The notes under the pieces were generated by a model. That model was not told the origin of the DNA, made no database searches, and was given only the letters and a program-made list of their open reading frames with translations. Shown here in pieces: positions 2,408-53,303 of a stretch of DNA of 64,000 bases. Position 1 is the first letter of the stretch. Every line of letters begins with the position of its first letter. The stretch comes from Desulfatiglandales bacterium. GTDB taxonomy: Bacteria > Desulfobacterota > DSM-4660 > Desulfatiglandales > Desulfatiglandaceae. The position numbers were made by a program, and so were the translations under genes. Location of the stretch: NCBI GenBank assembly GCA_963666345.1, contig OY762721.1, positions 864,001-928,000 of the forward strand, given 5' to 3'.

Positions 2408-5400
2408 TTATACAGCACGGCTGAAAGGTCTCTGTTTCCCGATCCTGTCAAGAGATCCTATCCATCTGACCGTCATGGTAACGGCGCCTGAGTCCTCCTC
2501 CACCCGTCCCTTTATGAGATAGGAGCGCATAGGCTCAAGCATGTGGCAGAACCTCTTGTAGGTATCAGGGAAAAACAGGGTCTCATAAAGGCCTGTCTGA
2601 TCCTCAAATGAGACGAATTTCATTAGATCCCCGCCTTCCGTGTGGATGGTCTTGCCTGCTATGTAAAGCCCCAGGGTAGTGACATCCTTTCCTATGAAGC
2701 GCCCGAGCTGATCGGCGCGCACGTGCCTGATGCCCCTACAGGCGTCCCTGTAAAGATCAAGCGGGTGCACGGACAGGATGAATCCGAGTGTTTCAGCCTC
2801 ATGCTGAAGTAGCTGCTTCTTTGAATAGGGTCCGGGATCGCATCTTTTCATTTTGGCCTTGGATACCCCCCTTCCCTTTACAGGTACCGTATCAAAGAAA
2901 AGGCTTGTCTGAGAAGGCTCTTTTGAATGAAAAAACTCCATTGCCTCCCACAGAAGAGCTGCCCTTGAAGCCCCCCCTGAAACGGCATCAAGGCAGCCTG
3001 CCTTTATGAGAAGCCTTATATCCTTCAGGTGCACCCTCAGCCCTGTCCTTGAAACAAGGTCTCCTAAAGATAAAAAATCCCCCCTTTTCTCCCTTTCATC
3101 GATAATGACTTCAGAGGCCGCCACGGAAAGATCTTTTATCTGCATGAGCCCGACCCTGATCTTCCTTCCCCTTCCCTTGTACTTTATCCCGCTTCTGTTT
3201 ATATCGGGGGGAAGGACAGCAAGCCCCATCCTCCTTGCCTCTGATATGTACCCGTAGGTGGAGTAATAGCCGCCTCCGTTTGATATGACGGATGCCATGA
3301 ATTCCGCCGGGTAGTGGGCCCTTAAAAAGGCGGACTTGTACGCAACCATTGTATAGCTTGCCGAATGGGGCTTACAGAAGCTGTAGCCGTCAAATCCCAT
3401 CATCATCTGCCATACCTTTTCTATTGTCTCATCCGCCACCCCCTTGCTCCTTGCCCCTTTTAAAAAGCGGTTGTAAAAATCTGCAAGCCTTTTTCCGCGC
3501 GCCTTTTTGCTTACCACCTTTCTCAAGGTGTCCGCCTCTGCCGGATCAAAGCCTGCGAGATGTATGGCTGCAAGGCTCAACTGCTCCTGAAAAACCATTA
3601 CCCCGAGCGTCTCCCTGAGCACGGGTCTTAAAAGGGGGTGTGGCGCGTCCCACGGCTCACCCTTGAGCCTCGATATCCACGCGCGTATGCCGGCGCTTGA
3701 TGCGGGCCTTATGATGGAGGTCACGACCACGTTCATCTGAAAGTGATCCGCATTGAGATATTTCCCAAAGGAAAAGGCAGAGCCCACCTTACAAAGCAGC
3801 TGCCTGGTTGCAGGGCTTTCAAAGTAGAACACACCGAATGTGTCCCCGTTATAAAACATGCGCACGGTCTCTGGGTCATCAACAGGATTGAGTTCAGCGT
3901 ACTCGATCCTTTTGCCGTAGTTTTTCTCAACCATAAAAAGGGCGTCCCGAATGACGGCAAGGCTGCGGTTTCCCAGGATATCTATCTTTACAAGGCCTGC
4001 CGCCTCAACCGATTCCTTTTCCCACTGAAGCACCTGAACCCCTGAGGCCGATATCTCAACCGGGCAGTATCTCCTTATCTCGTCAGGCACCACCACAAAG
4101 CCCCCGCAGTGGGTGGAAAGGTGGTTGAAGCGCCCCTCAAACAGGGCTGCAGCCTCTATTACCTCCTTCCACGGCCCTTTTAGATCAACCCCTTTGAGCC
4201 TCGGGTGACGGGAGATCTCATCTTTTATCTCTTTTAAGCGCATGTTAAACCCGATCCTGCCCGTCACCTTCCCGATCTCGCCTTCGGTCAGGCCGAACAC
4301 CTTTCCCGCCTCTCTTAAGGCACCCCTTGCGGCATATCTGTTATGATTCGCCACCATGGCGGCCCTTCTGTGGCCGTATTTCGAAAAGACGTAATCCAGG
4401 ACCTTTTCCCTTTCATCCCAGGCAAAATCGATATCTATGTCGGGCGGGTCCTTTCTTCCCCGGTTAAGAAACCTTTCAAAGAAAAGATTGTGCCTTATAG
4501 GGTCCACATGGGTTATGCCGAGCGCGTAGGAGACGATGGAGGCTGCGGCGCTTCCCCTTCCGCATGAGCGGGCGGCCTTTGATGTGATATCCGCCACCAC
4601 AAGAAAGTAGTGTGAAAACCCCTTCTCCTTTATGATCGCCATCTCGCGGGCGACCCTTTCTTTTACAGGTACTGTTATTTCGCCGTATCTCTTCCCGCAC
4701 CCTTCAAGGGTCATCCGGTAGAGCCTTTCATATGCCTTTTTATCCGTGTCTTCTTTAAAGCGGGGAAAGATAAGCCGTGAAAAATCCCAGGTTCTAAGGC
4801 AGGCATCAGCCACCTTTACGGTGTTTTCAAGAGCGGCAGGCGCGTGCGGGAACTGATCGCACATCGCAGAAGCCGGTTTCATAAAGCAGGTCTTCCTGCA
4901 TGTGTCATCGTGGGTAAGGCGGGATATCTTGCTGTTTGAGCTGACAGCCCTTAGGATGAGGTGCAGCCTGAAATCCTCTTTCTTTAAGAAATAGACCCTG
5001 TTTGTTGCAAGGGGGGGGATCTTGAACTTCCTTGAAAATGCGTAGCATGCGGCCATCCGGTAGCCGGGTGAGATCTCCACAAACAGGTCGCGGCCGGAGT
5101 CTTTTTTAAGGGCCTTAAGGAGCGTAAAATCATCCGTAAATATGACAAGCCCCCGCCTTTTCTCCCTGATCGCGCGGACAAGGTCAAAATCTGTGCCGCA
5201 TTTCATCTCGGAGATTATCCTGCACAGGTTTTTGTAGCCCTCGACTGTCTTTACAAGGGCTATTGCGCGGTTTTTGCCTGATATGAGTTCCGAGCCCAGA
5301 ACAGGCTCTATCCCCATATCACGGGCGGCCTCTATGAAAAAGACGGCCCCGTAGAGGCAGTTTGTGTCTGTAAGGGCAAGCCTTTTCATGCCAAGAGCGC

Positions 5401-7266: not shown

Positions 7267-7285
7267 TGTGATTACTCCTGTTTTT

Positions 7286-7533
7286 GGTCCTTCGCCCGAT
7301 TAGTTAAAAGAAAGGGTTCAAGGATTCAAGGATTCGAGGGTTCGAGGGTTCTTTGCTTCGCTCAGTCCCACCCCTCGACAAGCTCGGGGCGGGTTCCCGG
7401 TTTCACAAAAATCGAGAAAATACGATTTCCGCCGAGCATTTAACCCTCCATAATTTTTAAGTATTTCACTTGAATCCTTGACTCCTCGGCCCCTTGACCC
7501 CTTCATTTGTTTCAGATCTTCCGGAAACAATCC
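7286..7533. mobile_element. Degenerate copy of the TIR/8-mer-array element with a four-helix-bundle gene remnant
   Basis: Left end ggtccttcgcccgattagtta; array ggttcaag-gattcaag-gattcgag-ggttcgag; minus-strand peptide ILKNYGGLNARRKSY; inverted array cttgaatc-cttgactc-ctcggccc-cttgaccc; right end cagatcttccggaaacaatcc; flanks ctgttttt/ctgcttcc. Confidence 0.7.
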
Positions 7534-22292: not shown

Positions 22293-22346
22293 GGATCATC
22301 TCCAAAAGAGTTGAGCTAAATGAAGGATTCATGGAAGGGTTCGAAG
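22293..22346. repeat. Isolated end of the TIR/8-mer-array element
   Basis: ggatcatctccaaaagagttgagctaaatgaaggattc is a near-exact reverse complement of 1797-1828 and 52875-52912; lies between convergent genes. Confidence 0.75.
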
Positions 22347-50906: not shown

Positions 50907-52340
50907 TCATCTGCTCAGGCTGTGCAGGTAGTCTCTGTAATATCTCAGGACCCTGTTTCTGAAAGTGATGGTTTCCTTATATGGGGGGATGCCCTCGTAC
51001 TGAGCAACCCTCTTTGGTCCTGCGTTATAGGATGCCAGGGCAAGGCTTATGTCTCCATCCTGGATCCTCATCATCCTTGAAAAATATCTGAACCCGAAAT
51101 CGATAGCCTTTCGGGGGTCCAGACGGTCATCGGTCCCGTCCTTCAAGAGTTCCTTTTTATAACGATGAAAAAGGTTGCGTCTTGTGCCGGCGAACTCAAG
51201 GGAATCGAGCATATATTTTCTGGCCAACGTTGCATGACTTTCTTTGTTTTTATCCGTAATGCCTAATATGAGATTAACGGCCTTTTTTCTTAACCTCCTC
51301 TCCTTGGAAAAACTGGTCTGGGCCTCATTGAAATAATCGGGCATGAAGATATGCTTCATTCCAAGTCCCTTGCCGGTCATCGGCATTATCTGGGTTAGTC
51401 CGGCCGCTCCCACATAAGAAACCGCCTTTGAGTCGAAATTTGACTCTCGCCTCATCAGGGCCATAAACAGTAAAGGATCTACGGGGTAATGCCCCTTATC
51501 ATCCGAGCCTAAGATATCATTGAGAAAGTCGGCATAACGGGACTCGTTCCTTCCCAGTGCCCTTTGCCAGTCATCCTTGCCATGTAGCCCGTTTGCCTCA
51601 CCGCCCCTTTCCATATCAAAAAGTTTCAGGTCCTGTCCTGAGGCCCTTTCGGTAAATTCATTAAATATATGATTGACGAAACGCACATTGCGCGTATTCA
51701 AAGGTCCGTCGGAATCATTCATGCCCTGGCAGCGGTTGTAAAAGGATGCCAATCCGTCCCTGAGGTTATATGAACAGGCCTTCATGCTCTCCTCAATCAA
51801 GACCTCCATCAGCTTCAGGCAATTCGGCCTGTCCAGCCTGTCGTCAGAGGCCTTCTTTATCCCGGACCTGTATGATGCCAAAAGAGCCCTGGCCTTTTCG
51901 ACCGCATGATTATGGCTGAGAGCGAGTTTACCTATTTCCCCTATTTCTTCCCTTGAAAGCTGAGTCCTCCTGTCTGAAGAGATCTCTTTTATTATCCTGT
52001 CAAGGATTTCTTCCGCATCCTCGAAAATTCTGACAGCAGCCTCATAATCCTCGTATTCAGGCAGCTTCAGTCCGAAAGAGCGTGCCACATCGGGCCGAAG
52101 TCTGAGTACGCCCTCCTCACCCTTATAGGAATTATCTGAGAGGCTTTTTTTGTGCTGCTCCAGATTCCAGGCTATTATACTTTGTTTCAAGATCTCTTGA
52201 GAATCGGAAGCCGAAACGGAGAAAGGGGATAAAAATAGTATAAGGACACAGAAAAAGAAAATCTTGATGATTGAATTTACATAAATGCCCATGGAAGATG
52301 CCCTTAAAGGATCACATATATAATCTGATTTTTCCGGCAT
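50907..52340 (-). CDS. Exported lytic transglycosylase (SLT domain)
   Basis: ALMRRESNF, GAAGLTQIMP, ALASYNAG; start uncertain (possibly near 52289). Confidence 0.85.
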   Translation of the reverse strand: MPEKSDYICDPLRASSMGIYVNSIIKIFFFCVLILFLSPFSVSASDSQEILKQSIIAWNLEQHKKSLSDNSYKGEEGVLRLRPDVARSFGLKLPEYEDYEAAVRIFEDAEEILDRIIKEISSDRRTQLSREEIGEIGKLALSHNHAVEKARALLASYRSGIKKASDDRLDRPNCLKLMEVLIEESMKACSYNLRDGLASFYNRCQGMNDSDGPLNTRNVRFVNHIFNEFTERASGQDLKLFDMERGGEANGLHGKDDWQRALGRNESRYADFLNDILGSDDKGHYPVDPLLFMALMRRESNFDSKAVSYVGAAGLTQIMPMTGKGLGMKHIFMPDYFNEAQTSFSKERRLRKKAVNLILGITDKNKESHATLARKYMLDSLEFAGTRRNLFHRYKKELLKDGTDDRLDPRKAIDFGFRYFSRMMRIQDGDISLALASYNAGPKRVAQYEGIPPYKETITFRNRVLRYYRDYLHSLSR

Positions 52341-52373
52341 AAGTCCCCTGTTTTTTTATATCCTTATAAAAAT

Positions 52374-52912
52374 GGTTCTTCTCCAACTTAGTTGTCGAAG
52401 AGGGTCCAAGGGTCCAAGGATTCAAGGATTCAAGGGTTTTCTCTCCAGGGATCATCGCTTTGGACATTGCCCCGACATCCCCTATTTCCCTTCTTAATCT
52501 CTGAAGCCGCTCTTCTTTCAAATAACCCAGGTCAGCTGATGTCATGTCCCGGGTTTCCAATTCACAGGCTGAACCATATGCAATAAAGAAAAATTGCATA
52601 TACTCTATAGCCGTTTTTTCCCATACCCTCAGGCGGTATCCCTTGACATGAAAACAGCGGATCTTCTGATTCGGGAGGTAAAACAGTATTGCTCATCTTT
52701 AAAAAAACGTTTCGTTTCTTTATACATATGCAAACAAGGTGTATACGATTTTCCCCTAACGTTTAACTGCCTATGATCTTTAAGCTTTTCACTCGAACCC
52801 GCGGCCCCTTGACCCCTCCAAGCCGGGAACCCGCTGCGAAGCAGTGGGACTGAGCTGAGCTAAGCGAGGGCGAAGAATCCTTCATTTAGACCAACTCTTT
52901 TGGAGATGAACC
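52374..52912. mobile_element. Non-autonomous element with TIRs, 8-bp target duplication and four-helix-bundle cargo
   Basis: Left end ggttcttctccaacttagttg vs reverse complement of right end ggttcatctccaaaagagttg (17/21). ATAAAAAT directly flanks both ends (52366-52373, 52913-52920). Confidence 0.85.
52440..52790 (-). pseudogene. Four-helix-bundle protein (23S rRNA IVS-protein/Avd-like family) pseudogene
   Basis: LKDHRQLNVRGKSY...YKETKRFFKDEQYCFTSRIRRSAVFMSRDTA*GYG, then a frameshift into YMQFFFIAYGSACELETR...DLGYL. Follows the family pattern L.VW.KS...FP..E.YGLTSQIRRAAVS...NIAEGYG...IAYGS..ELETQ. Confidence 0.85.
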
Positions 52913-53303
52913 ATAAAAATATCCATCAAAATCCTGTTCATGACAGGCAGACTAACAGAAGATATCACCAATTTAAAGCCCTTTGAAATGTTCCGAAGCC
53001 ATAAAACAGGTTAGTTTGCCGATAACATTATGATAATTGGCTTTTCCAGACCCATTTTTATTTTATTATGGCAGTCCTGCCTCTCTTAGCCGGCTGAGAA
53101 AAGCAGGCTTTCATTATTGAAGTAACAGGATGAGTGCTCCTCACCCATACCCCTTTCTCCTTATTCCCTCCGGTCTCATCTGTTCATCCCTGTCCAAAAA
53201 AAATCTTCCATTCCAGTTACTGATAATATAGTCTGATTGTTCAATTAATGCCCATCCGGAAATTAGGACATACGAACATTAAACTTCAGAGGATATCAAA
53301 AAG

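Follow-up and report, generated by a model that had tools for sequence, protein, structure and literature searches.

Two described kinds of mobile DNA, the mobile insertion cassette (MIC), of which MIC231 of Bacillus cereus is an example, and the miniature transposable element with inverted repeats (MITE), come closest to the element studied here, a 540-bp unit at positions 52374-52913 of a 64-kb stretch of DNA (the window) from the single-contig, complete 4.16-Mb genome of a Desulfatiglandales bacterium. In the passages of PMC4133298 that concern them, both are derivatives of insertion sequences (ISs) that lack a transposase and are moved in trans, and the same passages place in the ISL3 family of ISs forms that carry passenger genes, such as ISPpu12. 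Between its terminal inverted repeats (TIRs) the window element carries the remnant of a four-helix-bundle gene enclosed by two arrays of short repeats. Intervening sequences (IVSs) of 23S rRNA that contain an open reading frame (ORF) are known from helix 45 of Coxiella burnetii and from Leptospira, and the part of PMC4990558 devoted to them describes the Coxiella IVS as having terminal inverted repeats, GACAGAT heptamers beside its ORF, a decaying ORF and a conjectured transposon origin. In Geobacter metallireducens inverted pairs of tandem sites lie between operon genes (24 of octa-, 21 of nona- and 8 of heptanucleotides), and the text and supplementary rows of PMC2700814 annotate them as 'putative global regulator binding sites' and link them to IHF/HU-type regulators. 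Finally, Avd, the accessory protein of diversity-generating retroelements (DGRs), belongs to a homologous four-helix-bundle fold family, according to the relevant section of PMC10053308.

Taken together, the analyses presented here indicate that the unit at 52374-52913 is very probably a dead copy of a non-autonomous ISL3-family element of the MIC/MITE kind, with two ISL3-type TIRs around an array-gene-array cargo that encodes an IVS-type protein. As a transposon, an ISL3-family MIC or MITE is a known kind of element, and like other MICs and MITEs this one has the TIRs of a known IS family, no transposase, a target-site duplication (TSD) of the length typical for that family, many copies and passenger DNA. 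Unlike them, its passenger is a ready-made array-gene-array IVS-protein cassette, its family spans several genera, and in this genome it spread mostly after the death of the gene. With ISL3 ISs, whose autonomous members of about 1.35 kb described below (L230 and G066:C62) encode a protein with Zn-ribbon, helix-turn-helix (HTH) and DDE_Tnp_ISL3 domains, it shares GG(Y/A)TC ends and 8-bp AT-rich duplications; it differs from them in having no transposase and in ends that are unlike those of the ISL3 copies resident in the same genome. The likeness to IVSs lies in the S23p/PF05635 protein family, an ORF within terminal inverted repeats, short tandem repeats next to the ORF and ORF decay, whereas an IVS sits in helix 25 or 45 of 23S rRNA and is cut out of the precursor, and the window element is situated outside any rRNA gene (there is no rRNA match in the locus) and has an outer ISL3 shell with an 8-bp duplication. 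Its arrays resemble the Geobacter sites, which are inverted pairs of 3-5 tandem 7-9-base units at variable spacing between operon genes (nifD/nifK, proB/proA) and which, in the text and supplementary rows of PMC2700814, have no link to four-helix-bundle genes or transposon ends. The likeness to Avd consists of a weak NF033474 match of an intact paralogue, which at 25.6 bits falls short of the cut-off of 80 for Avd membership, and unlike a DGR the 540-bp element has no room for a reverse transcriptase.

A literature search found no description of a four-helix-bundle or IVS-protein gene inside an element with TIRs and a TSD, or with such flanking arrays; the supplementary alignments of the Geobacter paired sites (PMC2700814), which lay outside that search, might bear on the link, and PMC8491059 and PMC8700078 merely list such genes. 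IVS-encoded proteins have so far been without a function or a known means of spread, and their mobile-element origin is a conjecture in the portion of PMC4990558 that discusses it. The ISL3 shell would be one concrete and testable vehicle for scattering this gene family, for which a matching transposase can be named, and as the gene is not needed for ISL3 movement, the question of what moves the gene can be separated from that of what the array-flanked gene does. The interest of the locus is therefore the pairing of a well-understood vehicle with a long-orphan cargo that was dead weight during the expansion.

Anatomy of the element and its family

We confirmed that 52374-52913 holds an element with TIRs, a TSD, arrays and a decayed gene, and the TIRs, perfect 8-bp duplication, inverted 8-mer arrays and decayed gene of the initial annotation are all present as it had described them. 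The octamer ATAAAAAT flanks the element on the left (52366-52373) and again on the right (52914-52921), with a perfect 8/8 match between the two copies. Just inside lie a left TIR of 21 bp on the plus strand (GGTTCTTCTCCAACTTAGTTG, 52374-52394) and a right TIR of 21 bp on the minus strand (CAACTCTTTTGGAGATGAACC, reverse complement GGTTCATCTCCAAAAGAGTTG, 52893-52913), which agree at 17/21 positions and which a repeat search of the window returned as arms of 23 nt with 83% complementarity. The left TIR has the 'GGTTCTTC' end type, which is the right inverted repeat (IRR) of autonomous ISL3 elements, and the right TIR is one base off the commonest 'GGATCATC' end type, which is their left inverted repeat (IRL). 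The four-helix-bundle gene (52432-52788, minus strand) is the only coding remnant, and there is no transposase gene within the 540 bp. On the strand of this gene, one array lies directly 3' of it and overlaps its lost stop codon; the repeat search resolved it on the plus strand at 52403-52434 as four tandem 8-base units (ggtccaag twice, then gattcaag twice). The other lies directly 5' of the gene on the same strand, at 52792-52823 (plus-strand units ctcgaacc, cgcggccc, cttgaccc and ctccaagc), and the two pair as an inverted repeat of 27 nt at 74%.

The element is one of a large family. Searching the genome with the whole element gave 113 matches in 85 clusters, and all of the copies begin and end exactly at the boundaries that had been drawn for the window element. 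With four variants of the 21-bp end, at most 4 mismatches and the reversed patterns as a control, we obtained 165 genome matches to the end consensus compared with 0 for the control, of which 59 are unpaired and the others form 53 pairs spanning 87-603 bp. Whether other copies carry target duplications was a point on which the initial annotation had rested its case, and such duplications are perfect in 27 of the 53 pairs and have one mismatch in a further 15 (42/53 in total), while a control shifted to the next 8 nt outward gave 0 perfect cases and 1 with one mismatch. A+T makes up 83% of the duplicated octamers and 52% of the genome. These family statistics (165 vs 0; 42/53 vs 1/53) exclude a chance match of the features seen in the window, and the duplications in the family are the footprint of DDE transposition. 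Matching TIRs, an 8-bp TSD, the lack of a transposase gene and many copies are thus all found, as is expected of a non-autonomous ISL3 element. Moreover, the copies at 1465503-1465848 and 3006784-3007129, both gene-less, show 100% identity along 346 bp in unrelated flanks and with different duplications, and two gene-bearing copies are 99.2% identical; near-identical copies at different sites imply that movement went on until recently.

Additional support comes from empty sites. We reconstructed 53 pre-insertion sites by script and searched them against the genome, which gave 21 junction-spanning matches from 4 of the 53 sites. The clearest reading is at genome 2900311-2900756, where a copy interrupts another small repeat and is flanked on both sides by AGATTTCT; each of the four uninterrupted paralogues that we inspected has a single (A/G)GATTTCT. 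Combined with the TSD family and with the ISL3 elements of the same ends described below, these sites support the earlier proposal that the cargo was moved in trans, as a MITE, by a DDE transposase, a proposal that remains a probable one on the sequences compared.

Other genomes hold the family as well. In 19 of 60 relatives there are matches of 75-91% to the ends and the first array, but not to the gene body, and the end pattern has 21-45 matches in each of 5 related genomes compared with 0-1 for the control. All 18 elements that we took from three related genomes run from an end through an 8-mer array, a variable middle and an inverted array to the other end; a duplication with at most 1 mismatch, counted by eye, accompanies 12 of the 18, and the same holds for 16 of 27 elements from metagenome contigs. 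Gene remnants are kept in 6/18 and 9/27 of these, respectively, and one metagenomic element of 559 bp (L203, 3501-4059) combines a perfect duplication, taatttaa, with an open four-helix-bundle gene. By these comparisons, the family of small elements is old and widespread and spans several genera. At about 50 copies per genome it accounts for many short 'four helix bundle' pseudogenes, and for assembly breaks, of these sediment bacteria. The PLSDB plasmid collection, searched in distant mode, gave no match.

Transposase family and source of the enzyme

Ends that begin with GG and 8-bp AT-rich duplications fit the IS1595, IS1 and IS6 families, from which the initial annotation had drawn its candidate enzymes. 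This attribution did not hold up. The Pfam models of IS1595 (PF12762), IS1 (PF03400) and IS6 (PF13610), and those of IS256, have no match in the complete 4.16-Mb genome, so that among IS1595, IS6, IS256, IS1 and ISL3 only ISL3 is found, and the elements elsewhere that have the same ends encode ISL3 transposases; that an IS1595-, IS1- or IS6-type enzyme moved the element is therefore extremely improbable.

The initial annotation had also looked to a transposase bounded by the same TIRs, and two such elements exist. A search of metagenome contigs with the end pattern gave more than 128 stretches, from which 80 loci were fetched, and one of these contigs, L230, holds a 1346-bp ISL3 element at 3501-4846 with the ends GGCTCTTCTCCCGATTAGTTG and GGTTCTTCTCCCGATTAGTTG. 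Both of these variants occur on small elements, GGTTCTTCTCCCGATTAGTTG being the exact end of the genome copy at 1215248. Its 400-amino-acid ORF has DDE_Tnp_ISL3 (234 bits), HTH_Tnp_ISL3 and Zn_ribbon_ISL3 domains, and the stop codon of the transposase is located in the right end. The second, at 333-1676 of contig G066:C62 from a member of the same order, is a 1344-bp ISL3 element with GGATCATCTCCAAATTAGTTG at one end and GGTTCTTCTCCGAATTAGTTG at the other, which is the asymmetric combination of end types that the small elements have, and its transposase is 61-68% identical to that of L230. Two further contigs, L208 and L185, show an end followed by the start of a related ISL3 transposase. The four-helix-bundle gene lies between the ends of the small elements in the same orientation as does the transposase in the full-length element. 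The left end of the window element matches the L230 right end at 18/21 positions and its right end does so at 16/21, and other genome copies reach 21/21, as 1215248 does with the right end of L230 and the right end of 1465503 with the left end of G066. On these grounds the enzyme family is ISL3, and we infer that the mover was a transposase of the L230/G066 type; any attribution to a particular transposase copy acting in this genome is likewise indirect.

The genome does contain an ISL3 element of its own, of 1349 bp and with 24-bp perfect ends (GGTTCATCCGGCAAATGCCGGGGT), in three copies that are 99.9% identical (1172257-1173605, which is L021 905-2253; 3211806-3213154; 3541257-3542605). Could this resident element be the source of the enzyme, cross-mobilising the small elements despite its differing inverted repeats? 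Its transposase is the only one that the genome has from the 8-bp-duplicating families tested, recent activity is evident from its three near-identical copies, each with an 8-bp AT-rich duplication of its own (tcttttat, attaaaaa and aagatttt), and the 100%-identical pair of small elements means that some enzyme was available recently; in addition, its terminal GGTTCATC equals that of the window right end. However, resident and small-element ends agree at only 10-12 of 21 positions, the resident transposase is 33% identical to the lineage with the matching ends, and no small element with resident ends was found, apart from one solo end of the resident type at 1166953, about 0.8 kb from a small element. 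We regard cross-mobilisation by the resident element as possible and rather doubtful. Another ISL3 element, in L042, also makes an 8-bp AT-rich duplication. The ISL3 transposases of the 60 nearest relatives (27 loci) were considered as candidates and set aside: small-element ends were seen in 0 of the 14 loci scanned, and all 27 loci are at most 36% identical overall to the cognate lineage.

Several observations weigh against the preferred reading of a non-autonomous element moved by a cognate ISL3 transposase. At least two mismatches separate the duplicated octamers in 11 of the 53 pairs. The cognate lineage is not present in the genome of the window, in which tblastn with the L230 transposase recovered only the three resident copies at 33% identity, and the resident ends have in common with the window right end only the first eight bases, GGTTCATC, agreeing at 12/21 positions. 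In a search of 209 genomes of the same order (E <= 1e-90), many of them incomplete and of a kind in which insertion sequences often fail to assemble, the cognate lineage was found in 1, and the transposase there, that of G066, is frameshifted. Neither complete autonomous copy has an 8-bp duplication (the octamers are atatttga and aaaaagtt for L230, atttactt and aattttta for G066). Lastly, no empty-site allele was seen at the window locus itself, either in 13 relatives' loci or in the contigs of public sequencing runs. The initial annotation had treated an empty site as decisive, and here its expectation was borne out in part, by the paralogous empty sites of the family member at 2900311-2900756 and not by the window locus.

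As for that locus, the element has an SLT-domain gene on one side, to which it lies 5', and pilD on the other. Orthologues of PilD, 44-54% identical, are present in 23 of 25 relatives, and in none of the 13 relatives' loci examined is the SLT gene beside pilD. No RNA run was listed among the public runs. In X1 and X3 the element ends are reached by contigs from each of the two unique flanks, and those samples therefore carry the insertion; in run X5 the right-flank contig alone reaches the element end, the left one stopping about 50 bp short, and among the listed joints of the public runs, which are joints of contigs only, none skips the element.

The sequence of events that we favour would then be as follows. 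An ISL3 transposase supplied in trans would have recognised the two ends, and the element would have inserted into an AT-rich 8-bp target 5' of the SLT gene, thereby duplicating ATAAAAAT. The cargo gene would have had no part in this movement, its start codon having gone and a stop having arisen before most of the family multiplied. As to the enzyme, the small elements are either cross-mobilised by the resident one or have recently lost their cognate element from the genome.

The decayed gene and the array-gene-array cassette

The remnant at 52432-52788 appears from profile search, tblastn and alignment to be of the PF05635/TIGR02436 type, and can be read in two frames. The two halves match PF05635 at E 1.4e-5 (25.7 bits) and 2e-4 (22 bits), both scores lying below the cut-off of 33.8 bits, and in tblastn they cover 97% of an intact paralogue at 60-66% identity. 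This paralogue itself belongs to the four-helix-bundle family that had been supposed, with 136 bits for PF05635 against a cut-off of 33.8, 136 for TIGR02436 against 24 and 152 for NF008911 against 137, and it matches the solved Xanthomonas protein PDB 2gsc at E 4e-28. The initial annotation had counted one in-frame TGA and one frameshift in the window copy. Both are there, but the lesions are more numerous: the former start codon (52786-52788, minus strand) has changed from ATG to AAG, the TGA (52629-52631, minus strand) stands at the invariant Glu codon of the AEG motif and is directly followed by a 1-nt deletion, and a 5-nt deletion lies near the 3' end, where the stop codon too has gone; both deletions shift the frame. 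When 20 gene-bearing copies are aligned, 15 have AAG for the start codon and 5 keep ATG, and the invariant Glu codon is a stop in 18 (TGA in 11, TAA in 7). Since lesions common to many copies at different sites must have been present in the copy that multiplied, the gene was already dead, with its start lost and a stop gained, while most of the family multiplied, and is a passenger. The window copy is a relic without evident present function.

The other copies tell of further loss. Among the 53 paired elements the gene is open in 1, full-length and broken in 19, partial in 8 and without detectable similarity in 25. In the family at large, many middles that have no gene still close with the protein's last helix, so that the short forms look like deletion derivatives. 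Mini-copies of 70-105 bp that have no gene still show duplications, and the protein is therefore not needed in cis for movement; the 70-bp copy (L076) is also without arrays. It has been proposed for the ORFs of IVSs that the protein itself takes part in mobility (Ralph and McClelland 1993, as cited in PMC4990558), and one might envisage here that it binds the 8-mer arrays and helps to synapse the ends or recruit them, acting in trans from one or two intact genes. The arrays are kept in nearly all copies, gene-less ones included, the genome still has two genes with this array type that are intact (3089063-3089543 and 2066743-2067057), and the association of shell and cassette is old, crosses genera and includes intact copies elsewhere. 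Nevertheless, the array-less 70-bp mini-copy has its duplication all the same, the same cassette occurs without transposon ends and is not multi-copy there, and the autonomous ISL3 elements with these ends have neither arrays nor a four-helix-bundle gene. We therefore consider it improbable that the protein is part of the mobility machinery and retain the reading of the gene as a passenger.

Arrays and gene are better understood as one layer, distinct from the transposon ends. Arrays of the same kind are found in element copies from other genera and around family genes that have no transposon ends, among them the intact gene at 2066743-2067057, whose array type is that of the window element. 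Other PF05635 genes of the genome, also without ISL3 ends, are likewise bracketed by inverted arrays of repeats of about 8 bases, with a unit that differs from gene to gene (GGAACGCG, CTAAAGTG, TTGATTGA, CGGTAATC). As arrays and gene thus occur without transposon ends, the array-gene-array unit is a cassette in its own right, and the ISL3 ends form an outer shell around it, by which it was captured. The earlier proposal that gene and arrays moved as a unit accordingly holds in that the arrays are part of the cargo, but the 8-mer arrays belong to the cassette and not to the transposon ends.

We surveyed this cassette in 80 relatives from many phyla, found with a three-protein alignment, of which 76 were analysable. 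The flanks are complementary (score >= 16) in 40/76 loci compared with 0-1/70 displaced controls, and strong tandem arrays are present in 14/76 and 15/76 flanks compared with 1/70 and 0/70 in the controls. The array period is mostly 7, then 8, and of 38 upstream arrays scored 68% are rich in purines on the strand of the gene. Complementarity that is kept across phyla while the sequence changes (40/76 vs 0-1/70) might point to an RNA-level intervening sequence as in 23S rRNA, with a long hairpin cut by RNase III, in which case the matching octamers at the element's borders would be due to chance or to other reasons; the layout of an ORF closed by inverted repeats is indeed that of the ORF-bearing IVSs of PMC4990558. 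Against this explanation, the 8-bp duplications are a property of the whole family, empty sites exist, the element is not in an rRNA gene, and a search of 12 loci against Rfam at a permissive E-value gave one irrelevant sub-threshold match. Moreover, on the gene's strand G-U-compatible changes are not in excess among the mismatches that separate the arms (77 vs 83), a result that lends no specific support to an RNA stem of the sense strand without speaking against it. We hold the RNA-level explanation to be very improbable for the window element, and the preferred reading remains that of a DNA cassette within an ISL3 shell.

A broader view of the cassette can be put forward tentatively, and we think it less likely to be right than wrong. 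The array-gene-array unit would be an independent, phylum-spanning selfish cassette, and its 7-9-base tandem arrays would serve as cis sites for the pentameric four-helix-bundle protein that it encodes. The cassette would settle wherever a hairpin is tolerated, as at the junctions of operon genes, in the middle of palindromic mini-transposons or at the tips of 23S rRNA helices. The ISL3 shell would then be one of several vehicles, and the rRNA IVSs and the Geobacter paired heptamer and octamer sites would be other faces of the same module.

Three further loci have unusual arrangements. In L182 (1287-3177) cheR and cheB are separated by a four-helix-bundle gene that has GGAACGCG arrays and no transposon ends, both junctions being ATGA stop/start overlaps, and the arrays encode a new C-terminal tail of CheR and the N-terminal tail of CheB; in a relative whose CheR is 57% identical, cheR and cheB overlap directly. 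The same arrays recur in L182 at the C-terminus of CheB and in a remnant upstream of cheR, so that several junctions of this che operon appear to have been invaded. L093 (Planctomycetaceae) has a tandem duplication of the cassette in which the copies share arrays, and in L150 (Chloroploca) the gene is flanked on either side by inverted array pairs that have no gene.

Surroundings of the window element and minor features

Inserted into the right array of the window element is a separate small repeat of the genome, a hairpin module of about 69 nt on the plus strand (52814-52882) that is GC-rich and has a predicted folding energy of -26 kcal/mol. It has 42 matches in the genome, 24 within paired elements and 18 outside them, and in other copies it occurs in the array of either side and in either orientation. 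The same module is also found in the array of the non-transposon gene at 2066743-2067057.

At 52374-52402 the left end of the element makes up one half of a local palindrome and is followed within 30 nt by a partial copy of itself in inverted orientation, and in other element variants this palindrome is perfect (TTCTCCCAATT/AATTGGGAGAA). The ORF of the neighbouring SLT-domain gene probably starts not at its first ATG but at an internal Met before a signal-peptide-like stretch (52292-52340), and with this start the element would lie about 75 nt upstream, in the likely promoter region. A scan for promoters and terminators around the element gave nothing above shuffled sequences.

In the public runs X1, X3 and X5, contigs also join the right end of the element back to its left end (window 52373/52914, reported as 'goes back 542, between: not known'), at a depth near that of the single-copy flanks. 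Such a joint could be the junction of a circle with abutted ends, could reflect elements in tandem elsewhere or could be an artefact that the shared octamer caused in assembly. The window itself holds other members or fragments of the family, namely an 87-bp mini-element at 1742-1828, an array stretch at 7285-7505 and a solo right end at 22293-22330.

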